Source of the DNA: Escherichia coli
GTDB taxonomy: Bacteria; Pseudomonadota; Gammaproteobacteria; Enterobacterales; Enterobacteriaceae
Direction: 5' to 3' (one strand)
Length of the DNA: 64,000 nucleotides
Assembly: GCF_016026235.1 (NCBI RefSeq)
Contig: NZ_CP065613.1
In this document: piece after piece, positions 38,515 to 60,301 of the stretch
Layout of the letters: every line of letters begins with the position of its first letter
Numbering within the stretch: position 1 is the first letter of the stretch
Made by a program: the position numbers and the translations under genes
Notes under the pieces: model-generated
What the model was told of the DNA's origin: nothing
What the model saw: only the letters and a program-made list of their open reading frames with translations
The model's database searches: none

Positions 38515-41500
38515 GTGAAGTTTTTTGCCCTCTTCATTTACCGTCCGGTGGCGACGATTTTACTGTCGGTTGCCATTACCCTGTGCGGCATACTGGGCTT
38601 CCGTATGCTGCCGGTCGCCCCGCTGCCGCAGGTCGATTTTCCGGTGATTATGGTCAGCGCCTCGCTGCCCGGTGCGTCACCAGAAACAATGGCGTCTTCC
38701 GTTGCCACGCCGCTGGAGCGCTCACTTGGGCGCATTGCCGGAGTCAGTGAAATGACCTCCAGCAGTTCGCTCGGCAGCACGCGTATTATTTTGCAGTTTG
38801 ATTTTGACCGGGATATCAACGGCGCGGCGCGCGATGTGCAGGCGGCGATCAACGCTGCACAAAGTTTGCTGCCCAGCGGGATGCCCAGCCGTCCGACCTA
38901 TCGCAAAGCTAACCCGTCGGATGCGCCAATTATGATCCTCACGCTGACATCCGATACTTATTCGCAGGGTGAACTGTACGATTTCGCCTCGACGCAGCTG
39001 GCTCCGACGATTTCGCAAATCGACGGTGTTGGTGATGTCGATGTCGGCGGCAGCTCACTGCCCGCCGTACGCGTCGGGCTGAATCCGCAGGCGCTGTTTA
39101 ATCAGGGCGTCTCGCTGGACGACGTACGCACTGCCATCAGCAATGCCAACGTGCGTAAACCGCAGGGGGCGCTGGAAGATGGCACTCACCGCTGGCAGAT
39201 CCAGACCAATGATGAGCTAAAAACCGCCGCCGAATATCAGCCGCTGATTATTCATTACAACAACGGCGGCGCGGTTCGTCTGGGCGATGTGGCGACAGTG
39301 ACCGACTCTGTACAGGATGTACGTAACGCCGGGATGACCAATGCCAAACCGGCTATTTTGCTGATGATCCGCAAGCTGCCGGAAGCCAATATTATCCAGA
39401 CGGTTGACAGCATCCGGGCAAAATTACCGGAGTTGCAGGAAACCATTCCGGCGGCGATTGATCTGCAAATTGCCCAGGATCGCTCCCCCACCATTCGCGC
39501 CTCGCTGGAAGAAGTCGAGCAAACGCTGATTATCTCGGTGGCGCTGGTGATTCTGGTGGTGTTTTTATTCCTGCGCTCGGGTCGCGCCACTATTATTCCC
39601 GCCGTTTCGGTGCCGGTTTCGCTGATTGGTACGTTTGCGGCGATGTACCTGTGCGGATTCAGTCTCAATAACCTTTCGTTAATGGCGCTCACCATCGCTA
39701 CTGGTTTCGTGGTGGATGACGCCATCGTGGTGCTGGAAAACATTGCCCGTCATCTGGAAGCGGGAATGAAACCGTTGCAAGCCGCACTGCAAGGTACTCG
39801 CGAAGTCGGTTTTACGGTGCTGTCGATGAGTCTGTCACTGGTGGCGGTGTTCCTGCCGCTGCTGTTGATGGGCGGATTGCCGGGCCGACTGTTACGCGAG
39901 TTTGCCGTGACGCTTTCTGTCGCCATTGGTATTTCGTTGCTGGTTTCCCTGACGCTAACGCCAATGATGTGCGGCTGGATGCTAAAAGCCAGCAAGCCGC
40001 GTGAGCAAAAGCGACTGCGTGGTTTTGGTCGCATGTTGGTTGCCCTGCAACAAGGCTACGGCAAGTCACTGAAATGGGTGCTCAATCATACCCGTCTGGT
40101 GGGCGTAGTGCTGCTTGGCACCATTGCGCTGAATATCTGGCTATATATCTCGATCCCGAAAACCTTCTTCCCGGAGCAGGACACTGGCGTGTTGATGGGC
40201 GGGATTCAGGCGGATCAGAGTATTTCGTTTCAGGCGATGCGCGGTAAGTTGCAGGATTTCATGAAAATTATCCGTGACGATCCGGCAGTGGATAATGTCA
40301 CCGGCTTTACAGGCGGTTCGCGAGTGAACAGCGGGATGATGTTTATCACCCTCAAGCCACGCGACGAACGCAGCGAAACGGCGCAGCAAATTATCGACCG
40401 TCTGCGCGTAAAACTGGCGAAAGAACCGGGGGCGAATCTGTTCCTGATGGCGGTACAGGATATTCGCGTTGGTGGGCGTCAGTCGAACGCCAGCTACCAG
40501 TACACGTTGTTATCCGACGACCTGGCGGCACTGCGAGAATGGGAGCCGAAAATCCGCAAAAAACTGGCGACGTTGCCGGAACTGGCGGACGTGAACTCCG
40601 ATCAGCAGGATAACGGCGCGGAGATGAATCTGGTTTACGACCGCGACACCATGGCACGGCTGGGAATCGACGTACAAGCCGCCAACAGTCTGTTAAATAA
40701 CGCCTTCGGTCAGCGGCAAATCTCGACCATTTACCAGCCGATGAACCAGTATAAAGTGGTGATGGAAGTGGATCCGCGCTATACCCAGGACATCAGTGCG
40801 CTGGAAAAAATGTTCGTTATCAATAACGAAGGCAAAGCGATCCCGCTGTCGTATTTCGCTAAATGGCAACCGGCGAATGCCCCACTATCGGTGAATCATC
40901 AGGGATTATCGGCGGCCTCGACCATTTCGTTTAACCTGCCGACCGGAAAATCGCTCTCGGACGCCAGTGCGGCGATCGATCGCGCAATGACCCAGCTTGG
41001 GGTGCCTTCGACGGTGCGCGGCAGTTTTGCCGGCACGGCGCAGGTGTTCCAGGAGACGATGAACTCGCAGGTGATCCTGATTATCGCCGCCATCGCCACG
41101 GTGTATATCGTGCTGGGTATCCTTTACGAGAGTTACGTACATCCGCTGACGATTCTCTCCACCCTGCCCTCGGCGGGCGTTGGAGCGCTGTTGGCGCTGG
41201 AGCTGTTCAATGCCCCGTTCAGCCTAATCGCCCTGATAGGGATCATGCTATTAATCGGCATCGTGAAGAAAAACGCCATTATGATGGTCGATTTTGCGCT
41301 TGAAGCCCAACGGCACGGTAACCTGACGCCGCAGGAAGCTATTTTCCAGGCCTGTCTGCTGCGTTTTCGCCCGATTATGATGACCACCCTGGCGGCGCTG
41401 TTTGGTGCGCTGCCGCTGGTATTGTCGGGCGGCGACGGCTCGGAGCTGCGGCAACCCCTGGGGATCACCATTGTCGGCGGACTGGTAATGAGCCAGCTCC

Positions 41501-41592
41501 TTACGCTGTATACCACGCCGGTGGTGTATCTCTTTTTCGACCGTCTGCGGCTGCGTTTTTCGCGTAAACCTAAACAAACGGTAACCGAGTAA
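38515..41592 (+). CDS. mdtC: RND multidrug efflux transporter subunit
   Basis: 1025 aa; paralogous to mdtB; GTG start immediately after the mdtB stop. Confidence 0.93.
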
Positions 41593-43008
41593 ATGACAGA
41601 TCTTCCCGACAGCACCCGTTGGCAATTGTGGATTGTGGCTTTCGGCTTCTTTATGCAGTCGCTGGACACCACCATCGTAAACACCGCCCTTCCCTCAATG
41701 GCGCAAAGCCTCGGGGAAAGTCCGTTGCATATGCACATGGTCATTGTCTCTTATGTGCTGACCGTGGCGGTGATGCTGCCCGCCAGCGGCTGGCTGGCGG
41801 ACAAAGTCGGCGTGCGCAATATTTTCTTTACCGCCATCGTGCTGTTTACTCTCGGTTCACTGTTTTGCGCGCTTTCCGGCACGCTGAACGAACTGTTGCT
41901 GGCACGCGCGTTACAGGGCGTTGGCGGCGCGATGATGGTGCCGGTCGGCAGATTGACGGTGATGAAAATCGTACCGCGCGAGCAATATATGGCGGCGATG
42001 ACCTTTGTCACGTTACCCGGTCAGGTCGGTCCGCTGCTCGGTCCGGCGCTCGGCGGTCTGCTGGTGGAGTACGCGTCGTGGCACTGGATCTTTTTGATCA
42101 ACATTCCGGTGGGGATTATCGGTGCGATCGCCACATTGCTGTTAATGCCGAACTACACCATGCAGACGCGGCGCTTTGATCTCTCCGGATTTTTATTGCT
42201 GGCGGTTGGCATGGCGGTATTAACCCTGGCGCTGGACGGCAGTAAAGGTACAGGTTTATCGCCGCTGACGATTGCAGGCCTGGTCGCAGTTGGCGTGGTG
42301 GCACTGGTGCTTTATCTGCTGCACGCCAGAAATAACCACCGCGCTCTTTTCAGTCTGAAACTGTTCCGCACTCGTACCTTTTCGCTGGGCCTGGCGGGGA
42401 GCTTTGCCGGACGTATTGGCAGTGGCATGTTGCCCTTTATGACACCGGTTTTCCTGCAAATTGGCCTCGGTTTCTCGCCTTTTCATGCCGGACTGATGAT
42501 GATCCCGATGGTGCTCGGCAGCATGGGGATGAAGCGAATTGTGGTACAGGTGGTGAATCGCTTTGGCTATCGTCGGGTACTGGTGGCAACCACGCTTGGC
42601 CTGTCGCTGGTCACCCTGTTGTTTATGACTACCGCCCTGCTGGGCTGGTACTACGTTTTGCCGTTCGTCCTGTTTTTACAAGGGATGGTCAACTCGACGC
42701 GTTTCTCCTCCATGAACACCCTGACGCTGAAAGATCTCCCGGACAATCTGGCGAGCAGCGGCAACAGCCTACTGTCGATGATTATGCAATTGTCGATGAG
42801 TATCGGCGTCACTATCGCCGGGCTGTTGCTGGGACTTTTTGGTTCACAGCATGTCAGCGTCGACAGCGGCACCACACAAACCGTCTTTATGTACACCTGG
42901 CTTAGCATGGCGTTGATCATCGCCCTTCCGGCGTTCATCTTTGCCAGAGTGCCGAACGATACGCATCAAAATGTAGCTATTTCGCGGCGAAAAAGGAGCG
43001 CGCAATGA
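41593..43008 (+). CDS. mdtD: MFS transporter
   Basis: 471 aa; 14-TM MFS-like protein. Confidence 0.9.
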
Positions 43009-44408
43009 AGTTCTGGCGACCCGGTATTACCGGCAAACTGTTTCTGGCGATTTTCGCCACCTGCATTGTCTTGCTGATCAGTATGCACTGGGCGGTGCGT
43101 ATCAGTTTTGAGCGTGGCTTTATTGATTACATCAAGCATGGTAATGAACAGCGATTACAACTGTTAAGTGATGCGCTTGGCGAGCAGTATGCGCAGCATG
43201 GCAACTGGCGCTTCCTGCGCAACAATGATCGCTTTGTCTTTCAGATCCTGCGTTCATTTGAACACGATAATTCGGAAGATAAACCCGGCCCGGGTATGCC
43301 ACCGCACGGCTGGCGTACCCAGTTCTGGGTGGTTGATCAAAACAACAAAGTGCTGGTTGGTCCGCGAGCGCCGATTCCACCTGACGGTACACGGCGACCC
43401 ATTCTGGTCAACGGTGCGGAAGTTGGCGCGGTGATCGCCTCCCCCGTTGAGCGGTTAACGCGCAATACTGATATCAATTTCGATAAACAACAGCGGCAAA
43501 CCAGCTGGTTGATTGTCGCCCTGGCAACGTTACTCGCGGCACTTGCCACTTTTCTGCTGGCGCGCGGTTTACTGGCACCGGTAAAACGACTTGTCGATGG
43601 CACGCACAAACTGGCGGCGGGCGATTTCACTACCCGCGTAACGCCCACCAGTGAAGATGAACTGGGCAAACTGGCGCAAGACTTCAACCAGCTTGCCAGC
43701 ACACTGGAGAAAAACCAGCAAATGCGGCGCGATTTTATGGCCGATATTTCTCACGAACTGCGTACGCCATTAGCGGTGCTGCGCGGTGAACTGGAAGCCA
43801 TTCAGGATGGCGTGCGTAAATTCACGCCGGAGACGGTGGCGTCTTTACAGGCGGAGGTCGGTACACTGACCAAACTGGTTGACGATCTCCATCAGTTGTC
43901 GATGTCTGATGAAGGCGCTCTCGCCTATCAAAAAGCACCGGTAGATTTGATCCCACTGCTGGAAGTGGCGGGCGGCGCATTTCGCGAACGATTCGCCAGT
44001 CGTGGCCTGAAACTGCAATTTTCCCTGCCAGACAGTATTACCGTATTTGGCGATCGCGACCGTTTAATGCAGTTATTCAATAACTTACTTGAAAACAGCC
44101 TGCGCTATACTGACAGCGGCGGCAGCCTGCAAATCTCTGCCGGGCAGCGCGACAAAACGGTGCGCCTGACCTTTGCCGACAGTGCGCCAGGTGTCAGTGA
44201 CGATCAGCTACAAAAATTGTTTGAACGTTTTTATCGCACCGAAGGTTCCCGCAACCGTGCCAGCGGCGGTTCCGGGCTGGGGCTGGCGATTTGCCTGAAC
44301 ATTGTTGAAGCACATAATGGTCGCATTATTGCTGCCCATTCGCCTTTTGGCGGGGTAAGCATTACAGTAGAGTTACCGCTGGAACGGGATTTACAGAGAG
44401 AAGTATGA
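43005..44408 (+). CDS. baeS: Envelope-stress sensor histidine kinase
   Basis: 467 aa; two TM segments, HAMP, H-box [12 protein letters not shown], ATPase G-box GGSGLGLAI. Confidence 0.93.
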
Positions 44409-45127
44409 CCGAGTTACCAATCGACGAAAACACACCGCGTATTTTGATCGTGGAAGATGAACCGAAGCTGGGGCAGTTGCTCATTGATTATCTGCGTGCT
44501 GCGAGCTATGCGCCGACGCTTATCAGCCACGGCGATCAGGTACTGCCGTATGTGCGCCAGACACCACCGGATCTGATCCTGTTAGATCTGATGCTCCCTG
44601 GCACCGATGGCCTGACGCTGTGCCGGGAAATTCGTCGTTTTTCTGACATTCCGATCGTGATGGTGACGGCAAAAATCGAAGAGATCGATCGCCTGCTGGG
44701 GCTGGAGATTGGCGCAGATGACTACATCTGCAAGCCGTACAGCCCACGGGAAGTGGTAGCGCGCGTCAAAACCATTTTGCGCCGTTGCAAACCGCAGCGC
44801 GAGTTGCAGCAACAGGATGCTGAAAGCCCGTTGATTATCGACGAAGGTCGTTTTCAGGCTTCATGGCGCGGTAAAATGCTTGACCTGACGCCTGCGGAAT
44901 TTCGTCTGCTGAAAACGCTCTCTCATGAACCAGGAAAAGTGTTCTCCCGCGAGCATTTGCTCAATCATCTTTATGACGACTACCGCGTAGTAACCGACCG
45001 CACCATCGACAGCCACATTAAAAACCTGCGCCGCAAGCTGGAATCTCTCGACGCCGAACAGTCATTTATCCGCGCCGTTTACGGCGTCGGTTACCGCTGG
45101 GAAGCCGACGCCTGCCGCATCGTTTAG
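44405..45127 (+). CDS. baeR: OmpR-family response regulator
   Basis: 240 aa; receiver motif [11 protein letters not shown] and winged-helix C-terminus. Confidence 0.93.
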
Positions 45128-45281
45128 TTTTAGCGACATTATTTTGTTAGCCGGAGATGGCGTTCAGACCCGATCCGGCCACATTATCCCACGCATGGTC
45201 AGCAAACTGACATTATCTCTCCGCCCTGGCAGGCATCAGAAAATCGCTCATACTTTAATCGGTAAACAGCACCTTTAGATG

Positions 45282-46707
45282 TAATGCCAGTCAGTTAAGC
45301 AACTGACTGGCTCTTTTTCGGGGCTGTGGGGTATTTCCAGGGCCTCTCCTTTACCACTCTCGGGAAGGCCCTTCCCCTTCTCGTCGGTAATTTCACAAGT
45401 TGTCCCATACTTGCAAGATCGCGCATCAGCTCCGGTATACGTCCCGGTGAAGCGCCCTGCAATGTCATCAGCATTCTCATCACCATTCCGCATGATTCTG
45501 AGAAACTCAGTTGATTCGGCCAGTAACCTTTCAGATGTTCCGCCATTTTAATCATCTGATATCTCACCAGATTATAAGCCAGTAAGACACCCCACAGCTC
45601 TTGCTCCACAAGCTCCGGCTTTTTACTTCTCAGCGTCAGCCTGCTCAGTTGCATCGTCTGTTTTATCTCCCTGTATCCCAGTTCGATTTCCCAGCGATGA
45701 CTGTACAGATCCGCCATTTCTCCTCCGGGGAAGCGCATGGCGTCCGTCATCGACGTCAGCAGATGGCAGACTTTTCCTTTGCGCGTCACGGTCAGCAGGC
45801 GGGCTGTCACTTCATTTCCCAGTCCCGGCCACTTTTTTCGTGCCTGCGGGCTGGTTTTCAGCTTCACCAGATGATCGCCTTTACCCAGTTTTCTGAGCTC
45901 TTCATATTGCGCTCCCTTTCTGAGAGGTATCATCCAGTGGCGGTGTTCTCCCGCCAGGCTCCAGGCATTTAACAGTCCCAGTGAGTAATAACCTTTATCC
46001 ATTAACGTCAGAGTGTTATCGCCGGTTTGTTCTATAAGTTGCTCAGCAAGCTCATTTTCGCTGTTCTTCATCGTGCCGAAGGCTGCAGCCGTCAGCAGAT
46101 GGCTGGTCAGTTCCATCTGGCAGACCATTTTGACCTGCGGGTAGAGCGCCGGGTTCCCGGCATGTGTCTGGCGGGGGAAGGCTGCATCGTTCTCTGGTGT
46201 ATCCGGTGTGCGCCAGAACACACCATCGATGGCCAGCAGGGTCAGGCCGCACCAGTGCGGATGCGGCGTGGCGTTATGCCAGAGCTGCGCTGTTTTCGTG
46301 AACACGCGGCGGACAGCCTCACTTCCCAGGCGCTGGCGGGCCTGAATAACGGCACTGGGGGCAACGAAGGGGCGATTGCCCGGCAGCATGATGTCCAGGC
46401 GATTCACAATCTGGTGAAGAGGTTCTTTACGCTCAAGCGCCATGCCAACAATACACCAGACCATCATTTCGAGGGGAAGACGGCGCTTGCGTAGCGTTAC
46501 AGTACCTGATTCGGCAAGGCAACGAGAGATGAGTTCGGGGTCGAGGTAATCCCCCAGAGAAGTCAGTGGGTTACGCAGAGAATCGTAACGGGATACCAGA
46601 TCAAGAGCCTGTCCAATGTGCATAAAAAAATCCGGAAACAAGTGAGCGTTTCCGGATTCTTACACAGCCACTGGATCGGTCAACTGATCCTTAACTGATC
46701 GGCATTA
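45282..46707 (-). mobile_element. IS4 insertion sequence, 1426 bp
   Basis: 18-bp imperfect terminal inverted repeats TAATGCCAGTCAGTTAAG / TAATGCCGATCAGTTAAG; 12-bp target-site duplication CACCTTTAGATG at 45270-45281 and 46708-46719; length matches IS4. Confidence 0.93.
45295..46641 (-). CDS. insG: IS4 DDE transposase
   Basis: 448-aa ORF (likely start at [13 protein letters not shown]); DDE motifs [30 protein letters not shown]. Confidence 0.92.
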
Positions 46708-46755
46708 CACCTTTAGATGCTGTTTTCGATACACAATTTCAATCAAGGAGTCATT

Positions 46756-47088
46756 ATGGCTGGTTGGTTTGAACTCAGTAAGAGCAGTGATAATCAGTTC
46801 CGGTTTGTGCTAAAAGCGGGCAATGGTGAGACTATCCTCACCAGCGAGCTGTATACCTCAAAAGCCTCTGCGGAAAAGGGCATCGCGTCGGTGCGTAGCA
46901 ACAGCCCGCAAGAAGAACGCTATGAGAAAAAAACGGCAAGTAACGGCAAATTCTATTTCAATCTGAAAGCCGCTAATCATCAAATTATCGGCTCCAGCCA
47001 GATGTACGCCACCGCGCAATCTCGTGAAACCGGAATTGCCTCCGTTAAAGCCAATGGCACAAGCCAGACGGTGAAAGACAATACGTAA
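46756..47088 (+). CDS. yegP: YegP (UPF0339/DUF1508 tandem-repeat protein)
   Basis: ORF track 46717..47088; start trimmed to MAGWFEL with SD AAGGAG at 46745-46750; two DUF1508-like repeats. Confidence 0.85.
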   Translation: MAGWFELSKSSDNQFRFVLKAGNGETILTSELYTSKASAEKGIASVRSNSPQEERYEKKTASNGKFYFNLKAANHQIIGSSQMYATAQSRETGIASVKANGTSQTVKDNT

Positions 47089-47240
47089 TTACGATGCCGG
47101 GCGTGGGTTGTTGGCGTCCGGCTTTATATCCAAATAACGCTTAGTTATTAATAATTAAGAGTAACCGCCGCCATTAAAATAGTGGGCACTGACGAGCACT
47201 CGTTGTGCTTTCTTTGTTTACCATCCCATACTTATCCTCC

Positions 47241-47252
47241 TGAACATGTTCA
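47241..47252. promoter_or_regulatory. Perfect 12-bp palindrome TGAACATGTTCA, candidate operator upstream of parDE
   Basis: Palindrome sits about 90 bp upstream of the parD start, within a likely promoter region. Confidence 0.35.
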
Positions 47253-47341
47253 TGTGCCAAAATATCTTCTAATACTTTCGTGACGCTATCCGGTTTATGA
47301 CATACACTGATGTAAGATTTTTACTTACAGGCGGGCGTAAA

Positions 47342-47593
47342 ATGGCCAGAACGATGACGGTTGATCTCGGCGATGAGTTGCGTGAATTTATCGAGTCCTT
47401 AATTGAATCCGGCGACTATCGCACCCAAAGCGAAGTGATCCGTGAGTCACTGCGATTACTTCGAGAAAAGCAAGCAGAGTCTCGCCTGCAAGCGTTACGT
47501 GACATGCTCGCAGAAGGGTTGAGTAGTGGTGAAGCTCAGCCGTGGGAAAAGGACGCGTTCTTACGGAAGGTGAAAGCAGGGATAAGGAAATAA
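47342..47593 (+). CDS. parD: ParD-family antitoxin (ribbon-helix-helix)
   Basis: ORF track 47297..47593; likely start at MARTMTV; resembles ParD/COG3609 antitoxins (TQSEVIRESLRLLREKQ); immediately upstream of a ParE-like ORF. Confidence 0.8.
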   Translation: MARTMTVDLGDELREFIESLIESGDYRTQSEVIRESLRLLREKQAESRLQALRDMLAEGLSSGEAQPWEKDAFLRKVKAGIRK

Positions 47594-47594
47594 T

Positions 47595-47891
47595 GTGCGT
47601 ATTATTAAACTCATGCCAAAAGCCAATGAGGATTTAGAAGGCATCTGGTATTACAGCTATCACCATTTCGGCGAACCACAAGCCGACAGATATGTGGAAC
47701 ATCTTTCAGACGTTCTCCAGATTCTGAGTAACAATAATATAGGTACGCCCAGACCTGAATTAGGCGAAGGTATTTTTGTTCTTCCTTTTGAACGCCACGT
47801 CATTTATTTCCTGCAATCACCAGGGGAAATTATCGTCATTCGTATCCTTAACCAAAACCAGAACGCCACCAGACATTTACACTGGAGCTAA
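47595..47891 (+). CDS. parE: ParE-family toxin (RelE/ParE superfamily)
   Basis: 98 aa; GTG start 1 nt after the parD stop, preceded by SD AAGGA; N-terminal EDLEGIWYYS and C-terminal IIVIRILNQNQNATRHL resemble ParE toxins. Confidence 0.8.
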   Translation: MRIIKLMPKANEDLEGIWYYSYHHFGEPQADRYVEHLSDVLQILSNNNIGTPRPELGEGIFVLPFERHVIYFLQSPGEIIVIRILNQNQNATRHLHWS

Positions 47892-47993
47892 ACCCGCCGA
47901 TTGCGCTACAATGCCCGCCCTTAAAGTGGGGGCACTCCCCTAACCGCTTCATCAGGTGAAGCGGATCTGACCTGTCATCAGAACGAGAGAATT

Positions 47994-49355
47994 ATGTTTA
48001 AACCGGAACTCCTTTCCCCGGCGGGAACGCTGAAAAATATGCGTTACGCTTTCGCTTATGGCGCAGATGCTGTTTATGCGGGCCAGCCGCGTTATTCCCT
48101 GCGTGTGCGCAACAACGAATTCAACCACGAAAATCTTCAGCTCGGCATCAATGAAGCCCACGCGCTGGGGAAAAAGTTTTATGTCGTGGTCAACATTGCA
48201 CCGCACAACGCCAAGCTGAAAACCTTTATCCGTGACCTGAAACCGGTGGTGGAAATGGGGCCGGATGCGCTGATTATGTCCGATCCAGGGCTGATTATGC
48301 TGGTGCGTGAGCACTTCCCTGAAATGCCGATCCACCTTTCGGTGCAGGCTAACGCCGTGAACTGGGCGACGGTGAAATTCTGGCAGCAAATGGGCCTGAC
48401 CCGCGTGATCCTCTCTCGCGAGCTGTCGCTGGAAGAGATTGAAGAGATCCGCAATCAGGTGCCGGATATGGAGATCGAGATCTTCGTTCACGGCGCGCTG
48501 TGCATGGCCTACTCCGGTCGCTGCCTGCTCTCTGGCTATATCAACAAGCGCGACCCGAACCAGGGCACCTGCACCAACGCCTGCCGCTGGGAGTACAACG
48601 TCCAGGAAGGGAAAGAAGATGATGTTGGCAACATCGTACACAAGTACGAGCCGATTCCGGTGCAAAATGTTGAGCCGACGCTGGGTATCGGCGCACCAAC
48701 CGACAAAGTGTTTATGATCGAAGAGGCCCAGCGTCCGGGCGAGTATATGACCGCGTTTGAAGATGAGCACGGCACTTACATCATGAACTCGAAAGATCTG
48801 CGCGCCATCGCCCATGTAGAACGCCTGACCAAAATGGGCGTGCATTCGCTGAAAATCGAAGGTCGTACCAAATCTTTCTACTATTGTGCACGCACCGCAC
48901 AGGTTTACCGCAAAGCTATCGATGACGCCGCTGCGGGAAAACCGTTCGATACCAGCCTGCTGGAAACTCTGGAAGGTCTGGCGCATCGTGGCTATACCGA
49001 AGGTTTCCTGCGTCGTCATACTCACGACGATTATCAGAACTACGAATACGGTTATTCAGTTTCTGACCGCCAGCAGTTTGTTGGTGAGTTTACCGGTGAG
49101 CGCAAGGGGGACCTCGCGGCGGTAGCGGTGAAAAATAAATTCTCCGTTGGCGACAGCCTTGAGCTGATGACGCCGCAAGGCAACATTAATTTTACCCTTG
49201 AGCACATGGAAAACGCCAAAGGCGAAGCTATGCCGATAGCACCAGGCGATGGTTATACTGTGTGGCTCCCGGTCCCGCAGGATCTTGAGCTCAATTACGC
49301 GCTGCTGATGCGTAATTTCTCCGGGGAAACCACGCGTAATCCCCACGGTAAGTGA
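47994..49355 (+). CDS. trhP: Peptidase U32-family protein YegQ/TrhP (tRNA hydroxylation)
   Basis: 453 aa; MFKPELLSPAGTLKNMRYAFAYGADAVY...; U32 family, with a Cys-rich segment. Confidence 0.9.
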   Translation: MFKPELLSPAGTLKNMRYAFAYGADAVYAGQPRYSLRVRNNEFNHENLQLGINEAHALGKKFYVVVNIAPHNAKLKTFIRDLKPVVEMGPDALIMSDPGLIMLVREHFPEMPIHLSVQANAVNWATVKFWQQMGLTRVILSRELSLEEIEEIRNQVPDMEIEIFVHGALCMAYSGRCLLSGYINKRDPNQGTCTNACRWEYNVQEGKEDDVGNIVHKYEPIPVQNVEPTLGIGAPTDKVFMIEEAQRPGEYMTAFEDEHGTYIMNSKDLRAIAHVERLTKMGVHSLKIEGRTKSFYYCARTAQVYRKAIDDAAAGKPFDTSLLETLEGLAHRGYTEGFLRRHTHDDYQNYEYGYSVSDRQQFVGEFTGERKGDLAAVAVKNKFSVGDSLELMTPQGNINFTLEHMENAKGEAMPIAPGDGYTVWLPVPQDLELNYALLMRNFSGETTRNPHGK

Positions 49356-49385
49356 TTAATTTCGATTATTTTTCCCGGATGGAAA

Positions 49386-49407
49386 ATTCTTAGAAACCGA
49401 TCACATA
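49386..49407 (+). promoter_or_regulatory. Candidate CRP binding site in the cyaR promoter
   Basis: AATTCTTAGAAACCGATCACAT contains the TCACA half-site centred about 43 nt upstream of the cyaR 5' end; -10 TATCAT at 49428-49433. Confidence 0.4.
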
Positions 49408-49439
49408 CAGCTGCATTTATTAAGGTTATCATCCGTTTC

Positions 49440-49526
49440 GCTGAAAAACATAACCCATAAAATGCTAGCTGTACCAGGAACCACCTCCTTAGCCTGTGTA
49501 ATCTCCCTTACACGGGCTTATTTTTT
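49440..49526 (+). ncRNA. cyaR: CyaR (RyeE) sRNA
   Basis: Sequence GCTGAAAAACATAACCCATAAAATGCTAGCTGTACCAGGAACCACCTCCTTAGCCTGTGTAATCTCCCTTACACGGGCTTATTTTTT matches CyaR as recalled; terminal hairpin plus T6. Confidence 0.9.
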
Positions 49527-49684
49527 ATGCATAAGCCCTATCCCTGGTCACCGTCTTCCATTGACCACATCGATAGAATCTCCCTTCATAGCACGATGCC
49601 TTTCACGTAACGGCATCGTGCTCGCACAGGTTCCGGCTAAGCACAACCAGAACGCGCATGTTTGACGCTTACCAAAAAATATTC

Positions 49685-50002
49685 TCACTCTCCACATTTG
49701 AATGTCAGACGAGCGACGCCATGTAATCCTGCACCTTCTGTCTTCAGGTCAACTATCTGCATTTTTTTGCCCTGAGTAACACAGAAATGGGCTGCATCAT
49801 TTTTTACTATATTTTCTGCACCAGATATTCTGCCCCTGGCTAAAGAAGCTTCGGCTTCGGTGTAGTATTGGTTATCGAGTTTACGCTGAATATTACTTTT
49901 ATATGCAAGACCAAATTTACCGATACTTGTCTCATCATTATGCACAGCACAACCAGACATAATAAAAATACTAATTAATGATATAGCAGCTATCTTTTTC
50001 AT
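49685..50002 (-). CDS. yegR: Small lipoprotein YegR
   Basis: ORF track 49685..50062; start trimmed to MKKIAAISLISIFIMSGC (lipobox). Confidence 0.8.
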   Translation of the reverse strand: MKKIAAISLISIFIMSGCAVHNDETSIGKFGLAYKSNIQRKLDNQYYTEAEASLARGRISGAENIVKNDAAHFCVTQGKKMQIVDLKTEGAGLHGVARLTFKCGE

Positions 50003-50407
50003 CTCACCTTCCCCCATTAAATACCAACGACACTCTCTAGTGTTTAAATATAATAATGGCATGATTATTATAATTGAATAGGATTATAATAAATGTTCTG
50101 TACAACATTTCCTACATAAGTAGGAATTACGGACATTGAGGCCCTTCAGGGTAACTCCATGGGGGCTTTAATATATTATATTGAAGATGCCACTGTTTAG
50201 TTGAATATTAGGTATATGCTCTTTTTTGAAATTTATCGGTGGCAGCCGTTAGTATTCGCTGTCCCCATTGCAAGCTCCTGGTGGTAACCACTGAATCCTC
50301 CATACTTGAACTGACTTTTTATCCTCCGACTTTCATCCTGTTCTGACTCCACCTTTTGTTTTCTGCTCTACACTATCTACAGACCAATCATAAAGGCACA
50401 TACGATC

Positions 50408-51307
50408 ATGGCAGAATTTCCCGCCAGCTTACTGATTCTTAATGGCAAAAGTACTGACAATCTACCCTTGCGCGAAGCAATTATGCTGTTGCGTGAGGAA
50501 GGAATGACGATCCATGTGCGGGTCACCTGGGAGAAAGGCGATGCCGCACGATATGTAGAGGAGGCCCGGAAGTTGGGCGTCGCAACGGTGATTGCCGGTG
50601 GTGGCGATGGCACCATTAATGAAGTTTCTACGGCGTTGATTCAGTGTGAGGGGGATGACATACCCGCGCTGGGAATTTTGCCATTAGGAACCGCCAATGA
50701 TTTTGCCACCAGTGTAGGGATTCCTGAGGCACTGGATAAGGCGCTGAAACTGGCAATTGCCGGTAATGCCATTGCGATAGATATGGCGCAGGTCAACAAA
50801 CAAACCTGTTTTATTAATATGGCGACAGGCGGGTTTGGGACGCGTATTACCACAGAAACGCCGGAAAAATTAAAAGCCGCGCTGGGTGGCGTCTCATACA
50901 TCATTCATGGCTTAATGCGTATGGATACTCTGCAACCGGACCGTTGTGAAATCCGCGGTGAAAACTTTCACTGGCAAGGTGACGCCCTGGTCATTGGTAT
51001 TGGTAACGGGCGTCAGGCCGGTGGCGGTCAACAATTGTGCCCGAACGCGTTAATTAACGATGGCTTGCTGCAACTGCGCATTTTTACCGGCGATGAAATT
51101 CTTCCGGCTCTCGTATCAACCTTAAAATCTGACGAAGATAACCCGAATATTATCGAAGGCGCTTCGTCGTGGTTTGATATACAAGCCCCACACGAAATCA
51201 CTTTTAATCTTGATGGCGAACCGTTGAGTGGACAAAACTTTCATATTGAAATACTTCCGGCGGCGTTGCGTTGTCGATTACCACCAGATTGTCCATTATT
51301 GCGTTAA
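50408..51307 (+). CDS. yegS: Lipid kinase YegS (diacylglycerol-kinase catalytic family)
   Basis: 299 aa; GGDGT motif in [13 protein letters not shown]. Confidence 0.9.
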
Positions 51308-51344
51308 TCAAACTATTCTCTCTTGAACCAGGGAGAATCCGTAA

Positions 51345-51378
51345 TGCCGGATGCGGTGTAAATACCTTATCCGGCATA
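51345..51378. repeat. REP element between yegS and gatR
   Basis: GCCGGATGCGGTGTAAATACCTTATCCGGCATAC. Confidence 0.75.
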
Positions 51379-51388
51379 CAGAACAATA

Positions 51389-52168
51389 CTACACCGTAAT
51401 TAATTTCACCCGTGTCTTCTGCAATGCCAGTTTATCCACCTCAGACACAGCATCATCGGTAATAATAATGTCAATTTTTTCGATTGGCAGTACCTGATTA
51501 AAACCGCGACGGTTAAATTTCGATGAATCGAGAACGGCAATCACTTTATTAGCGGCTGTGACCATCGCACCGCTAACGGAATAACCCTCATTAAAGGTCG
51601 TAATACCATTAACCGCATCAATACCATCAGCACCGACAAACATTAAATCGGCATTAATATCCTGCAGGGAACGTTCAGCAATAGATCCATGCATAGATCG
51701 CGTTTTATGGCGGACCGTGCCACCGCAGACGACCAGAGTAATGTCTTTATTTTCGGAAAGGGCAAACGCAGCCGGGAGACTGTTGGTAATCACCGTGATA
51801 TTTTTGGCGGTCATTAATCCTTCGGCGATAAGCATTGTGGTACTTCCGCTGTCGAGAATAACGGTCATCCCTTCATGGATCATTTTGACTGCCGCCTGCG
51901 CTATTCTGTTTTTCGGCGCGCTGGCGAGCTGAAATCGCTCTTTAAACCCGACTTCCTGGGTCTCGGTTTCACTATTACCGGACATTATTTTCGCCGCACC
52001 GCCATGAAAGCGCGTAACCACGCCTTTTTGTTCGAGAAAGCGCAAATCGGCACGGATTGTCGCTTCCGAGGCAGCAAATACTCCCGCCAGATCCTGAACA
52101 AGCACGGTTCCCTGTTCATTCACTAATTGGATGATCTTATTCCTTCGCTCGAATGAATTCATCGTCAT
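51389..52168 (-). CDS. gatR: DeoR-family repressor of the galactitol operon (intact)
   Basis: 259 aa; N-terminal HTH and C-terminal DeoR sugar-binding domain; uninterrupted here. Confidence 0.88.
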   Translation of the reverse strand: MTMNSFERRNKIIQLVNEQGTVLVQDLAGVFAASEATIRADLRFLEQKGVVTRFHGGAAKIMSGNSETETQEVGFKERFQLASAPKNRIAQAAVKMIHEGMTVILDSGSTTMLIAEGLMTAKNITVITNSLPAAFALSENKDITLVVCGGTVRHKTRSMHGSIAERSLQDINADLMFVGADGIDAVNGITTFNEGYSVSGAMVTAANKVIAVLDSSKFNRRGFNQVLPIEKIDIIITDDAVSEVDKLALQKTRVKLITV

Positions 52169-52267
52169 TTACCCATATTCAATTGTGGCTAGTGTAAACG
52201 AAGGGGGACCATTGGTGAATGATCTGTTTTGCACAATACCGGGCCAGCATCACGCTGGCCCGCGGTT

Positions 52268-53308
52268 TCAGGGAATGAGCAACACTTTGCCCGGCATGGC
52301 ATTACGAGCGATGTCACGCACCGCCTGGGCGAAGCTTTCAAAGCTTCCACGGTGAGCGATTAATGGCTCCAGGCTTAACTTACGTTCTGTCAGCAACCGG
52401 CTCGCCGTTTCCCACTCCTGCCCCGGCCAAGGGCTGGAGTAGTTCATCCAACTGCCGATAACCGTCAGCTCTTTACGCAATATTTTGCCAAACGTTGCCG
52501 ATGTTAAATGCAGATCCTGATGCAACGTGCCCACCAGCGCCAGTTGGGCATGAGGACCGGCAATCTCTACCGCCAGTTCGACAGTTTGCGGTACGCCAGC
52601 CGTCTCGAGGATAAGCTGATTAAAGCGCAGTTCGCGTAAAACGCTCTGCATTTGCGGCGCGCTCATTTCGCTACTGTTAAATGTTTGCATCGCACCGAAA
52701 GATTTTGCCAGTGCCAGTTTTTCTGAGCTAATGTCGATAGCCGTCACACTCTTTGCTCCCAGCGCGACAGCGCACTGAATAGCCAGCAGGCCAATGGTTC
52801 CGGCACCAATAATAATAACGTTTTTATTCTCACAACCTTGCGCTAAATGAAAAGCATGCAGTCCAACGGTAATCGGCTCAATAAAAGCCCCATCCTCAAT
52901 AGGCATATCCGTGGGTAGAGCAAAGACATTTTTTCGCTTAACGACAATATATTCAGCAAATCCACCATCACGCCGCGAGCCAATAAAATCATATTTTGCG
53001 CACTGGGAATAAAACCCTTTCAAACACTCTGGACAAGTAAAACAGGGTAATAACGGCACACAGGCAACCGCATCGCCAAGGTGTAAATCATCAACACCGG
53101 ATCCCACCGCATCAATATAGCCGCTAAATTCATGGCCTAACGTTATTGGATAATAATGTGCACCATTTTTAAATATCCTGGGTAAATCGGAACCACATAA
53201 GCCCGAGCTGGCAATTTTTACCCGTACCTCATCCTGATGTTTAATTTCAGGAATGACGCTTTCTGCAACGCGCACGATACCATCAGTATCATTCACCACT
53301 GATTTCAT
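52268..53308 (-). CDS. gatD: Galactitol-1-phosphate 5-dehydrogenase (Zn-dependent)
   Basis: 346 aa; Zn-ADH motifs GHEFSG and GAGTIGL. Confidence 0.92.
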   Translation of the reverse strand: MKSVVNDTDGIVRVAESVIPEIKHQDEVRVKIASSGLCGSDLPRIFKNGAHYYPITLGHEFSGYIDAVGSGVDDLHLGDAVACVPLLPCFTCPECLKGFYSQCAKYDFIGSRRDGGFAEYIVVKRKNVFALPTDMPIEDGAFIEPITVGLHAFHLAQGCENKNVIIIGAGTIGLLAIQCAVALGAKSVTAIDISSEKLALAKSFGAMQTFNSSEMSAPQMQSVLRELRFNQLILETAGVPQTVELAVEIAGPHAQLALVGTLHQDLHLTSATFGKILRKELTVIGSWMNYSSPWPGQEWETASRLLTERKLSLEPLIAHRGSFESFAQAVRDIARNAMPGKVLLIP

Positions 53309-53340
53309 AAAAACTCCTGATTGTTAAGGGGGATAAACTC

Positions 53341-54634
53341 CTGAGGAATCCCCAGAAAACAAGACAGGCATAGTGAGATGTGATCTAATTGATTGTGCTA
53401 ACAATTTCAAGGAGATCACCACTATGCCTGCACGTTCATTATGCCAAAATTTCCTTAACAATATACTGGCCCCTTTGCATCTTTACCGTCAAAAATCACT
53501 GATTGACGCAACTAATGCTGTAATAAATGGCGCTTCCCTCACACTTACCAGTATCGGGCGTCATTTAACCGGTACGGCATCAGTTAAAAACAAAATAAAG
53601 CGGGTGGATCGACTGTTGGGGAATCGACATTTGCAAAATGAGGTTTCCACCATTTTTCAGCGAATTACCCAAAAGATTACGCGGGGAATGTCTCGTGTTG
53701 TGATACTCATTGACTGGAGTGCTTATCATGCCTCTCGTTTTCAGCTTTTGCGGGCAAGCCTGGCATGTGACGGGCGTTCTTTACCGTTGATGAGTTGTGT
53801 CGTTCCATCATCACAGACAGCGAATGCAGATGTACATGAGCGTTTTCTGGAATCGCTTGCTGAGTGCTTTTCCCCCGGGACTGATGTCATTGTTATTACA
53901 GATGCCGGTTTTCAGGGGCGATGGTTCCAACAGCTCCGCTCCCGTGGCTGGACCTATATTTGCCGGGTACTGGGCAATCATTATTACAATGTTGGTAATG
54001 GCTGGGAAAAGGTGTCGGACTCAGGCACAAAAGCATCAACGACAGCAATTTATTTAGGTGAAGGCCTGCTGGGTCGAGATAAAAATGCACAACATGAAGG
54101 GCATTTTTATCTTTATAAAAGTAAGCCTAAAGGTCGTAGATTTAAACGCTCGAAGGAAAGAGCAACCAGACCATCGGTGACGGCTAAAGCTCGTACTGCC
54201 GGGAAATCACCATGGTTTATTTTCACAAACAGTACTGAGTTCTCGCCAAAACAGGTAATGAAATTATACAGCCGTAGAATGCAAATTGAGCAAAATTTCA
54301 GGGATGAAAAAAATCCTCGCTGGGGATTTGGACTACGGTTTGGTGCCAGTCATTCATCCGGGCGGGTCACGGTATTGAGTCTGATCGCAACATTAGCCAG
54401 TATCATTATGTGGTTAAGCGGTTTCAGCCTGGAAAACAAAGGGATACATCATAAATATCAGGCAAATACAGTGAAGCACAGGCGAGTCATCTCGTTATTA
54501 AAACTGGCGGAGAATGTGATTCGACATTCTCCACTCATACTAAACACACTGTCACTTGACGCAGGGCTGAAAGTTCTACAGCAACGGTATACCAATATGA
54601 TAATGGTTTACTAAATTTTCTGGGGATCCCTCAG
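53341..54634 (+). mobile_element. IS10-like insertion sequence (IS4 family), copy 2, 1294 bp
   Basis: Same element as copy 1, with at least two single-base differences (offsets 121 and 1087); flanking direct repeat GGATAAACTC (53331-53340 and 54635-54644). Confidence 0.9.
53373..54614 (+). CDS. IS4-family (IS10-like) DDE transposase
   Basis: 413 aa, protein identical to the copy-1 transposase. Confidence 0.9.
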   Translation: MRCDLIDCANNFKEITTMPARSLCQNFLNNILAPLHLYRQKSLIDATNAVINGASLTLTSIGRHLTGTASVKNKIKRVDRLLGNRHLQNEVSTIFQRITQKITRGMSRVVILIDWSAYHASRFQLLRASLACDGRSLPLMSCVVPSSQTANADVHERFLESLAECFSPGTDVIVITDAGFQGRWFQQLRSRGWTYICRVLGNHYYNVGNGWEKVSDSGTKASTTAIYLGEGLLGRDKNAQHEGHFYLYKSKPKGRRFKRSKERATRPSVTAKARTAGKSPWFIFTNSTEFSPKQVMKLYSRRMQIEQNFRDEKNPRWGFGLRFGASHSSGRVTVLSLIATLASIIMWLSGFSLENKGIHHKYQANTVKHRRVISLLKLAENVIRHSPLILNTLSLDAGLKVLQQRYTNMIMVY

Positions 54635-54659
54635 GGATAAACTCCCCCTCAGTTAAAAA

Positions 54660-56015
54660 TTATTCTGCGAGAACGGCTTTCTCTTGTTTAATAAAACCAC
54701 GCGCTCTACGCCAGGTAATGAAAATACCGGTCAGATAAATTGCGCCGATAATAATGAAACCGGGAATATTTTGCGGGGAGAAAACCTGAATCAGTAACCA
54801 GGTAATGGGAGAACCGCCCTGATCCATTGAAGCCACCATACCCCCGGCTTTTAACGCCCCAGCATTAGCCGCCAGTTGGGTGTGCAAACCAATAGTTTGC
54901 GTCGCGATCCACAGAGTGATGCTCATGATGATGACACCCGAGATTAAGGTGCGGAACAGATTTCCACGATGCACGGCGACTGCCATCGCCACAAAGAAGC
55001 CGATGGTGGCAAGATCGCCAAACGGCAGCACCTGATTACCCGGAACACAAACAGCAATTAAAATGGTGAGCGGGATAAAAATCAGGCTTGCCGATACCAC
55101 CGCCGTATGCCCCAGCAGTAATGCGGGATCCAGGCCAATCAGGAACTCCTGACCGCCGAACTTCGCCTGTAAACGACTACGGGCCTGCTTAGCGATGGGC
55201 GTTAAACCATCCATGATGGGTTTAATCACCCGTGGCATTAGCAGCATCACTGCCGCCGTTTTTACCGCCAGCTGCAATACACCTTTGACATCGTAACCCG
55301 CGAGGATGCCGATAATCAGCCCCATCACAAAACCCACGGTGACAGGCTCGCCAAATGGACCAAATTTGCGCTGAATATCGTCGGCGCTAAATTTAATTCG
55401 GTTAACGCCTGGGATTTTCTCGATGATAGCATCGACCAGCACCGCAATCGGCCCCATATACGCCGACGTACCGTGCGGAATAGCAATACCTTCCAGCTCA
55501 AAGAAATTTCGGGTATCGCGGGCAAACCAGTCGCCGAGCTTATAAACAAACGCCGCGTGAATTACCACACCTGCCATCCCTATCATCCATGAACCGGTTG
55601 CCAGATGCAGCAACGCGCCGGTGAAGGTCATATGCCAGATATTCCAGATATCAACATTTACCACCCGCGTCATACGGGTCAGTAACATCGCCACGTTAAC
55701 CAGAATCGCAATCGGAATCGCCACCAGCGCAATTTGCGACGCCCAGGTCATTGGTGAAGAGCCCGGCCAGCCGACATCGACCACATGCAGATTCAGGTCG
55801 AAATTTTCCGCCATCGCTTTCGCCGCCGGACCAATGGAATCCAGCATTAAGCCAATCACAAGGCCAATGCCAACAAAGCCAATCCCGATATGCAGACCCG
55901 CTTTAAAGCAATCGCCTGCCTTCATGCCTAATATTTTAGAAAAAATAATGATGACAATCGGAAGCATCACCGTAGGGCCGAGGTCGAGAATATAACGCAT
56001 GACTTCTGAAAACAT
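54660..56015 (-). CDS. gatC: PTS galactitol-specific EIIC
   Basis: 451 aa; polytopic membrane protein. Confidence 0.92.
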   Translation of the reverse strand: MFSEVMRYILDLGPTVMLPIVIIIFSKILGMKAGDCFKAGLHIGIGFVGIGLVIGLMLDSIGPAAKAMAENFDLNLHVVDVGWPGSSPMTWASQIALVAIPIAILVNVAMLLTRMTRVVNVDIWNIWHMTFTGALLHLATGSWMIGMAGVVIHAAFVYKLGDWFARDTRNFFELEGIAIPHGTSAYMGPIAVLVDAIIEKIPGVNRIKFSADDIQRKFGPFGEPVTVGFVMGLIIGILAGYDVKGVLQLAVKTAAVMLLMPRVIKPIMDGLTPIAKQARSRLQAKFGGQEFLIGLDPALLLGHTAVVSASLIFIPLTILIAVCVPGNQVLPFGDLATIGFFVAMAVAVHRGNLFRTLISGVIIMSITLWIATQTIGLHTQLAANAGALKAGGMVASMDQGGSPITWLLIQVFSPQNIPGFIIIGAIYLTGIFITWRRARGFIKQEKAVLAE

Positions 56016-56018
56016 AGG

Positions 56019-56303
56019 TCACCCCTGTAAGATAGTCAGAATTTTATTTTGTAATGCTTCGATACCGACACCAGAAATAAAAGGCATGCCGTGAACTAAC
56101 GGAATATCGCCAAAACTACGATCCACTTTGGCAGTGGTGCATATCAAATGCACACCATCCATATAGGTTTCTATTTCATTAACCCGACACTGGATTAATT
56201 CAACAGGAATATTATGATTCTGACACAACTCTTTAATTTCTTCTGCCGCCATCGTAGAGGTCGCAACCGCGCCTCCGCAAGCGACAATAATCTTGCGTTT
56301 CAT
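56019..56303 (-). CDS. gatB: PTS galactitol-specific EIIB
   Basis: 94 aa; [16 protein letters not shown] with phospho-Cys. Confidence 0.92.
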
Positions 56304-56333
56304 AAATAGTCCTTTTTATTGTTACAGAGGGAT

Positions 56334-56786
56334 TTATTCGTCTGAATCTAAAACATACTTTGTGAAGTATTCCTTTAACTGGGTTTCAGGAAGAGTGATT
56401 AGTGTCTCGACGATATCGGGCTGTTGTAACTTGCCAAATAAACAGCGTAAAAGTTTCAATTGCTGCTGCGGATTTTCCACAATCAACGCAATAACCAACG
56501 ATACCTCCACGTCGTTATCATCATCCGCTTGCTGAAAATGAACTTTATTTGTTGGCCTTAACAGATAAATGGCTGACGACTTAGCATGAATCGCCTCACA
56601 ATGCGGTATTGCAATGGCGTGCTGCTCAAGCATTATCCCGGTAGGGAATTCTGCTTCTCTGGCAATTAATGCCTGTGGCCAGGTATCATGAACCACACCT
56701 TTGGCGAGCATCTCATTACCGATATGGGTTAAAACTTCGCTACGATCGACAAAAGAAATTCCGCTACGAACAAACAGGTTAGTCAT
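56334..56786 (-). CDS. gatA: PTS galactitol-specific EIIA
   Basis: 150 aa; EIIA (mannitol/fructose type). Confidence 0.92.
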   Translation of the reverse strand: MTNLFVRSGISFVDRSEVLTHIGNEMLAKGVVHDTWPQALIAREAEFPTGIMLEQHAIAIPHCEAIHAKSSAIYLLRPTNKVHFQQADDDNDVEVSLVIALIVENPQQQLKLLRCLFGKLQQPDIVETLITLPETQLKEYFTKYVLDSDE

Positions 56787-56795
56787 ATACCGTCC

Positions 56796-58995
<2,200 letters not shown>

Positions 58996-59108
58996 TTAAA
59001 TATCGAGATAACGATCACAAAAACGACAATATGAAAATTGTTCGAGGAGTGAAAGGCAAAAAAACGGCCTCCCGATAGGGAAGCCGTAGCAAAGTGCGCG
59101 TGTTTTTA

Positions 59109-59222
59109 TGCCGGATGCGGTGTAAACATACGTGGCAGTGCTATGTAGGCATGATAAGACGCTTCCGCGTCGCATCAGGCATAGGTTGCCGGATGCAGTG
59201 TAAACGCCTTATCCGTCCTACG
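59109..59222. repeat. REP/BIME cluster between gatY and fbaB
   Basis: Three REP-like units (GCCGGATGCGGTGTAAAC..., CGCATCAGGCATAGG..., GCCGGATGCAGTGTAAACGCCTTATCCG). Confidence 0.8.
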
Positions 59223-59248
59223 GGGTGGTGTTGTTCGTATAAGGCGTA

Positions 59249-60301
59249 TCAGGCAATAGTAATTTTGCTATCGAGATAAACGTCCTGCACGGCGTTAATC
59301 AGTTTCACGCCGTCAGCCATCGATTTCTTGAACGCCTTACGTCCAAGAATCAGCCCCATTCCGCCAGCGCGTTTGTTGATAACCGCAGTACGCACTGCAT
59401 CACTGAGGTCAGTTTCACCGCCTGCAGCACCGCCGGAGTTTATCAACCCAGCCCGGCCCATATAGCAGTTAGCTAACTGATAACGCACCAGATCAATCGG
59501 GTTTTCGCTGGTTAACTTGCTGTACACGCGATCGTCGGTATAACCGTAATTAATCGCTTTATAGCCGCCGTTATTTTCCGCCATTTTTTGTTTGACGATA
59601 TCTGCGCCGATGGTTGCCGCCAGATGGTTTGCCTGACCGGTCAGGTCGGCGGAAACATGGTAATCAACGCCATCTTTCTTAAAGGCGGAGTTACGCAAAT
59701 AGGCCCACAGCACGGTCACCATGCCCAGCTCATGCGCACGTTCAAAAGCCGCAGAAATTTCTTCAATCTGGCGACGTGACTCTTCCGAGCCAAAATAGAT
59801 AGTCGCACCAACCGCCACCGCGCCCATGTTGAAAGCCTGCTCCACGCTGGCATACAGCGTTTGATCGTAGGTATTCGGGTAACTTAGCGTCTCGTTGTGA
59901 TTAAGTTTGACGAGAAATGGAATGCGATGCGCATAGCGCCGCGATACCGACGCCAACACGCCGTAAGTTGATGCCACACAGTTACAGCCCGCTTCGATCG
60001 CCAGTTCAACAATGTTTTTCGGGTCAAAGTAGAGCGGGTTAGCAGCAAATGAAGCTCCGGCAGAGTGCTCAACGCCCTGGTCAACCGGCAGAATAGAAAG
60101 ATATCCTGTGCCAGCCAGACGCCCGGTGTTGTACAACGTCTGCATATTACGTAACACCGCTGGCGGGCGATTATTGTCAATCATTACGCGGTCTACGTAG
60201 TCATGTCCGGGGAGATAAAGCTGGTCAGAAGGAATTGTCATACAACGGTGCTGTAAAAGGTTGTCGGCGTCTTTGCCAAGCAACTGCGCAATATCTGTCA
60301 T
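59249..60301 (-). CDS. fbaB: Fructose-bisphosphate aldolase class I
   Basis: ORF track 59249..60373; start trimmed to [16 protein letters not shown]. Confidence 0.9.

Follow-up and report, generated by a model that had tools for sequence, protein, structure and literature searches.

The question raised by this locus is whether the DNA that follows the small RNA gene cyaR in Escherichia coli is simply an empty phage attachment site or is itself the product of an earlier integration. The preliminary description of the 64,000-nt stretch of DNA analyzed here (the window) had noted that cyaR is followed directly by yegR, had concluded that no prophage remnant is present at the 3′ end of the small RNA gene, and had proposed the interval as a reference junction for the detection of P2-like integrations. 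Our best explanation, to which we assign as a whole a probability of roughly 0.85, combines both possibilities. The segment 49440-49526 would be the gene of the Hfq-dependent small RNA CyaR, and its last 27 bp would be the preferred chromosomal attB (locI type) of P2 and its relatives, unoccupied in the window by any recent element, whereas the 794 bp beyond it (49527-50320), including yegR, would be the fossil of an older P2-like prophage. The features on which this explanation is built are collected in Table 1.

Table 1. Coordinates of the features identified at the cyaR-yegR-yegS locus (positions in the window; fossil features are putative assignments).
Feature	Position	Strand	Evidence
cyaR (ryeE) small RNA gene with intact intrinsic terminator	49440-49526	+	RF00112, terminator scan, RNA fold, MG1655 alignment
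P2 attB core (locI type), comprising the loop, 3′ stem arm and T run of the cyaR terminator	49500-49526	+	27/27 to P2 attP core
Fossil P2-type P arm	49527-49573 (47 nt)	+	Alignment to P2 attP and K-12 attL; semi-global test
Hairpin with perfect 11-bp arms, yegR 3′ region	49590-49622	.	Inverted repeat and minus-strand fold, z -3.45
yegR, 105-aa predicted lipoprotein (signal peptide ending ...MSGC)	49685-50002	-	ORF list
Fossil P2-type P′-proximal attP sequence	50261-50293	+	23/33 to P2 (L002 1468-1500)
Decayed second 27-nt core (fossil attR core), AATCCTCCATACTTGAACTGACTTTTT	50294-50320	+	18/27 ungapped
Ancestral cyaR-yegS spacer (B′ side)	50321-50407	+	Homology to L120, L122 and E. albertii L004, 86-90% identity
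yegS (lipid kinase), ancestral downstream neighbor of cyaR	50408-51307	+	ORF list, K-12 annotation

The small RNA gene was recognized by the Rfam model RF00112 (CyaR_RyeE), which matches the plus strand at 49438-49523 over its full length (model positions 1-85 of 85) with 100.7 bits, above the gathering score of 47. The gene boundaries, obtained by carrying the MG1655 annotation over through a pairwise alignment, coincide with those of the preliminary description, and the terminator reported there as intact is indeed present. The terminator scan and the RNA fold place at the 3′ end an intrinsic terminator with an 11-pair stem at 49491-49518 and a 6-nt loop, followed by the U run TATTTTTT. The 84 nt upstream of cyaR are identical to those of K-12.

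The final 27 nt of cyaR (49500-49526, AATCTCCCTTACACGGGCTTATTTTTT) are identical (27/27) to the feature annotated as 'attP' / 'Int, attP core' in the P2 genome AF063097, where it occupies positions 24356-24382 between int and ogr. The earlier suggestion that the 3′ end of the small RNA gene serves as a P2 attachment site was thus borne out by the comparison proposed with it, that of the cyaR 3′ end with the attP cores of the P2 family. Within the 64-kb window, no second copy of the 27-nt core was found at three or fewer mismatches, with zero copies expected by chance. We take this site to be the one named locI, the preferred site of P2 in E. coli C.

The behavior of the site was deduced from occupied E. 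coli genomes. Their similarity to the window is interrupted precisely at 49500, where the core begins. The matches span 49470-49534 at the left junction and 49500-49560 at the right junction, overlapping only in the core region, and the inserted DNA is flanked by two cores with both junctions at the core. In strain JCKP02, a P2-like cox-C-int module (cox, repressor, and integrase) stands directly before the right junction and yegR, which is the geometry expected of P2; prophages of other E. coli strains are likewise flanked by the core with int on the yegR side. By every sequence feature that could be tested, the site belongs to the P2 attB class. The P2 integrase would exchange strands inside the 27-bp core, and because the phage brings an identical copy of it, integration would restore cyaR in full at the left junction. 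The integrated phage would then lie between cyaR and yegR, with int adjoining yegR. With respect to the core at the end of cyaR, close to yegR, the window does not differ from P2 locI. The difference lies in the flank, which at locI is usually taken as plain bacterial DNA, whereas in the window it keeps a decayed P arm, in which one half of the Int arm-site region is well preserved.

Comparison with K-12 clarifies what is missing from the window. In MG1655, cyaR is followed by the cryptic prophage PR-X (629 bp; ogrK and the yegZ pseudogene) and then by yegR, as the preliminary description had stated. A pairwise alignment of the two loci, the comparison suggested there, contains one clean gap that covers just the PR-X block, both sides of it being nearly identical. 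From the end of cyaR to the yegR stop codon we counted 158 bp in the window (49527-49684), close to the earlier estimate of about 160 bp, and neither ogr nor the fragment of gene D is found between the two genes. Thus, instead of the equal spacing that would have spoken against an unoccupied att configuration, the 629-bp block is found in MG1655 alone of the two, and the claim of an unoccupied configuration stands. In K-12, the left junction starts with a perfect core, beyond which lie P2-type IHF and P-arm sequences, the terminator of ogr, ogrK itself, and the fragment of D. The right junction is damaged, with only the 3′ two-thirds of the core left.

A left junction near-identical to that of K-12, together with an E. 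coli-type cyaR, was also observed in a 9.7-kb contig labelled MAG: Collinsella sp. (L116), which is probably a mis-binned Escherichia contig. Differences between the window and K-12 were also observed at neighboring loci. A ParD antitoxin/ParE toxin gene pair (47297-47891; Pfam E 7e-19 and 3e-13) is located between yegP and yegQ (trhP); the yegP-yegQ gap in K-12 is only 146 bp, and the ParD/ParE insert is present in 1843 of the 5426 complete E. coli genomes. The gene gatR (51389-52168), encoding the DeoR-family repressor of the galactitol operon, is intact in the window and split by IS3E in K-12 MG1655. Over 40000-60000, none of the complete genomes follows the window throughout, and the best match covers 94% of this part at 99.3% identity.

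The arrangement taken as ancestral is seen in other species. When species-representative genomes were scanned with a cyaR pattern, 120 loci were obtained, 112 of which had enough downstream sequence. In 58 of these 112 species loci, from many genera, a YegS N-terminal motif occurs within 420 nt of cyaR; in 12 species loci, a P2-like P arm follows cyaR. In two other Escherichia species (L120 and L122), the cyaR terminator is followed by a spacer (…CGACTTTCATCCTGTTCTGAC…) and then by yegS, which in L120 is 86% identical to yegS of the window; in species without yegR, this spacer comes directly after the terminator. The block that separates cyaR from the spacer in the window is absent, with precise boundaries, from these relatives (L120, L122, and many genera). 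Escherichia albertii has the spacer, lacks yegR, and carries a well-preserved P2-type attR exactly at the position homologous to 50294-50320. In E. albertii NBRC 107761 (L004, 4905-8412), approximately 3.4 kb with a P2-like left arm lie between cyaR and yegS. This E. albertii block is an independent P2-family remnant at cyaR.

At its left end, the block begins with sequence of phage-arm type that adjoins the core. The segment 49527-49573 retains the Int arm-site region GGTCAC...CATTGACCACATCGA, with 22 of 28 positions identical to the annotated P arm of P2 and CATTGACCACATCGA perfect, and lacks approximately 16 nt of the IHF-site region. In a semi-global test against the P2 sequence to the right of the core, its score corresponded to a z of 9.7-10.7 (about 10) and was reached by none of 5000 shuffles. 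As a control, the cyaR-side flanks of five species that have cyaR joined directly to yegS were compared with the same P2 arm, and none was significant. A fuller version of the P arm, including the IHF region, is found in an Escherichia lineage (L029) whose yegQ is 92.7% identical. An Int arm-type half-site may thus stand beside the core, the candidate sequence within 49500-49590 being ATTGACCACATCGA. Slightly farther downstream, the string AATCTCCCTT at 49577-49586 was considered as a partial second core and rejected, since K-12 and strain GN05476 read AATCCTCCTT at this position and the next bases do not match the core.

At the right end, a second core and the other phage arm are found in matching orientation. 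In anchored alignments at a position fixed by synteny, to which all significance values for this end refer, the segment 50261-50320 matches P2 attP (P′ and core) at 41 of 60 positions (z 7.0, 0/5000 shuffles). The arm portion alone (50261-50293) reaches z 5.3 against P2 P′ (0/5000) and only z 0.3 against the corresponding cyaR sequence. These 33 nt to the left of the core therefore argue for a phage-type attR. A hint from a three-way MAFFT alignment that 50261-50320 could be a decayed duplicate of the cyaR 3′ end was rejected, as the anchored z against cyaR is only about 3. The right-hand fossil is approximately 32% diverged from P2, homology to the left of about 50261 is ambiguous, and the core at 50294-50320 has lost the ability to fold as a terminator. 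When cyaR was aligned with 50063-50407 by a stringent local method, nothing rose above shuffles, which indicates that the right fossil is too decayed for such an approach. Nevertheless, divergent E. coli lineages, CFT073 among them, keep it in varying form, and the right part of the relic (50003-50345) is present in 5301 of the 5426 E. coli genomes. The identity of this part is between 90 and 95% in 1952 genomes and between 80 and 90% in 265; over the few loci compared, it appears more divergent than the flanking genes.

Taken as a unit, the block 49527-50320 shows three of the four features by which an att-bounded prophage fossil was judged, namely a stretch of phage arm next to the core on the left, a second core with the other arm at the right end, and precise absence from relatives. 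The fourth, recognizable phage genes, was looked for inside 49527-50320 and none was found. The GC content of the block is 0.40, compared with 0.52 for the window, and both fossils are oriented as expected for one prophage. We infer that a single ancient P2-like integration gave rise to both of them and that yegR arrived with that prophage. The left core would have stayed perfect because it is part of the working cyaR terminator, and the right core, being functionless, would have drifted. PR-X and the present-day prophages would be later integrations into the left core of the fossil.

PR-X ('ogr-D′' in K-12) offers the closest comparison. It shares the attachment core, and its left junction (cyaR, core, and P arm) has the same type of structure as the left end of the fossil. 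The two differ in age, content, and distribution. PR-X is young, its 611-bp interior being at least 95% identical to the ogr/D-like sequence in most E. coli genomes that have it, and it keeps ogr and part of D, whereas the fossil has no phage genes and its arms are about 30% diverged. PR-X occurs in 358 of the 5426 genomes, whereas the fossil is nearly universal in E. coli. The conclusion of the preliminary description that no prophage remnant follows cyaR therefore holds for a recent remnant of the K-12 type and fails for the P2-type P and P′ arm fossils around yegR. Since these arms flank yegR, the truly virgin junction, as judged from the species comparison, is cyaR followed directly by yegS. 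The cyaR-yegR interval is valid as a reference junction, as had been proposed; it is commonplace, representing the majority state, and it is not the virgin one.

The only gene inside the block is yegR, with a GC content of 0.38. The ORF in the window is 95-99% identical to proteins named YegR and corresponds to annotated yegR in the matching genomes. YegR homologs carry the domain PF27694 (YegR) and are nearly confined to E. coli and Shigella; a search of the local Pfam copy gave no significant match for YegR. A full-length match to the PHROG family phrog_21109 was considered as a sign of phage origin and set aside, because its source records include host flank. In phage databases, yegR occurs in just two records, a 'partial genome' extending into yegS and gatR and a remnant record of 2.4 kb. 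One of the relevant entries, ON470606.1 (L134, Escherichia phage vB_EcoM-720R8; 3001-5842), is a prophage excerpt that extends beyond the right junction and takes in yegR, yegS, and gatR of the host, and host-flank records of this kind probably explain why YegR has a PHROG family of its own. Thus, no phage homolog of YegR was found, the matches in PHROG and the phage databases all tracing to host flank. Homologs with 47-51% identity (L125-L130) were also inspected as a clue to the origin of the gene. They are located in an IS-rich region by an MFS transporter gene in Enterobacter sp. BIDMC 29 and beside a uracil-DNA glycosylase (UDG) gene in a different enterobacterium. These contexts are unrelated to cyaR or P2 and are uninformative about the origin; they suggest that the small YegR family moves between contexts.

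The sequence around the 3′ end of yegR has features of its own. The hairpin at 49590-49622 corresponds in position to the ogr terminator of P2. A U run is lacking on both strands, and the hairpin is therefore probably a 3′ stem-loop of the yegR mRNA. In strain GN05476, one pair of this hairpin is altered on both sides, from C-G to T-A, and such a two-sided change hints at selection on the structure. Some E. coli, e.g., GN05476, contain an extra AT-rich stretch of approximately 170 bp just 3′ of the yegR stop codon (at 49672/49673 of the window; L123, about 1582-1750). This stretch is also found in the Escherichia lineage L029, where only its start falls within the available sequence, and it is absent from the window and from K-12.

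The absence of a phage homolog and the non-phage contexts of the distant YegR homologs count against yegR as phage cargo, and the gene could have entered separately; similarly, the left and right fossils could stem from different integration events. In the full form of this alternative, yegR and the AT-rich DNA were inserted by other means, and later P2-like prophages were imperfectly deleted, leaving the two scraps independently. The cyaR site has been used repeatedly, with three generations in E. coli (the fossil, PR-X, and intact prophages) and P2-like arms after cyaR in 12 other species loci; the YegR relatives in IS-rich and other non-phage surroundings are readily accommodated, and the K-12 remnant shows that one-sided scraps arise. 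However, a scrap of P′ and core beyond yegR requires that a core was already there, which is what a single relic supplies, and the two fossils are similarly decayed and are both present in essentially all E. coli. We therefore regard separate events as unlikely and retain the single ancient integration.

A different issue is whether the window is empty only secondarily, an ancestor having lost a P2-like prophage or a K-12-type remnant by precise Int/Cox excision. The occupancy of the site was surveyed in the 5426 complete E. coli genomes, contiguity being scored with a 91-nt probe across the junction. The cyaR junction is contiguous, and therefore empty, in 4143 of them (76%), so the empty state is the norm. 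The K-12-specific D′/core junction was found in 358 genomes, many of which are laboratory K-12 derivatives, and in the remaining genomes the core is the point of interruption, as it would be for a full prophage. Excision at a perfect core would leave no scar, and P2-like prophages are common, with ogr/D-like sequence in 2150 of the 5426 genomes, both of which would suit such a loss. Against it, the empty state predominates and is found in every background sampled, the K-12 remnant with its damaged right core and without int and cox could not have been excised, and the window holds no trace of occupation by a recent element; on balance, secondary emptiness seems quite improbable.

The opposite extreme, a truly virgin attB flanked by DNA that resembles the P2 arms by chance or through phage-arm convergence, with yegR as an old resident that was lost elsewhere, is very improbable: the right fossil was not flagged by stringent local alignment, the block is free of phage genes, and the 10-nt repeat at 49577-49586 illustrates that short chance matches do occur, but the anchored z values of 7 to 10 with 0/5000 shuffles stand beside five negative virgin flanks, each of the two matches involves the arm expected at its end, with order and orientation also right, the block stops to the nucleotide at the core on its left side and, on its right, at the T run that precedes the conserved spacer, its GC content is low (0.40), and the cyaR-yegS adjacency across many genera would demand repeated and precise losses.

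That the site can be empty is already known and ordinary. The genome paper of E. coli W (2011) names 'cyaR RNA' as an insertion site of large mobile elements and gives as its occupants Wphi2 (P2) in W, ogr-D′ in K-12, P2*B in B, and none in Crooks (PMC3032704). The older fossil, on the other hand, appears to be undescribed. A link between yegR and a prophage, or the fossil as such, was not found in the literature searched, a scope to which the original P2 locI papers and De Lay and Gottesman 2009 did not belong.

Elements at the 3′ ends of tRNA, tmRNA, and small RNA genes, such as the P2-like phages at ssrA and the elements at sdsR in Salmonella, behave in the same manner, as they carry a copy of the 3′ end and rebuild the gene upon integration. 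At such sites, the displaced copy decays and the locus is repeatedly reused (PMC3448106; PMC3333887). The cyaR case differs from them in that no more than the 27-bp terminator part is duplicated and in that the displaced copy is flanked by phage P′ rather than forming a longer pseudo-gene. Another comparison is provided by cis-mobilizable elements (CIMEs), which are the att-flanked leftovers of integrative elements without an integrase of their own. The fossil resembles them as a short block between attL-like and attR-like sites that contains a single cargo gene and lacks a recombinase. Unlike in CIMEs, its right core retains only 18 of 27 positions and its arms are decayed, so that present-day mobilization is unlikely; neither a circular form nor a second genomic location of the fossil was seen.

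The fossil is thus a small new case of a familiar pattern, in which prophages integrate again and again at the 3′ end of an RNA gene and decay there. The more far-reaching proposal is that the cyaR-yegR-yegS arrangement is a species-wide P2-like fossil that brought yegR, that locI is really the attL of this fossil, and that the arm half-site could aid the preference of P2 for it; we consider this proposal about as probable as its negation. The fossil would explain the origin of the orphan gene yegR and of its AT-rich surroundings, and three generations of P2-family integration would be stacked at the terminator of one small RNA. For comparisons across Escherichia species, cyaR-yegS would be the junction at which integrations should be scored. 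If the proposal is true, the remnant arm site beside the core may affect the use of this site by P2.
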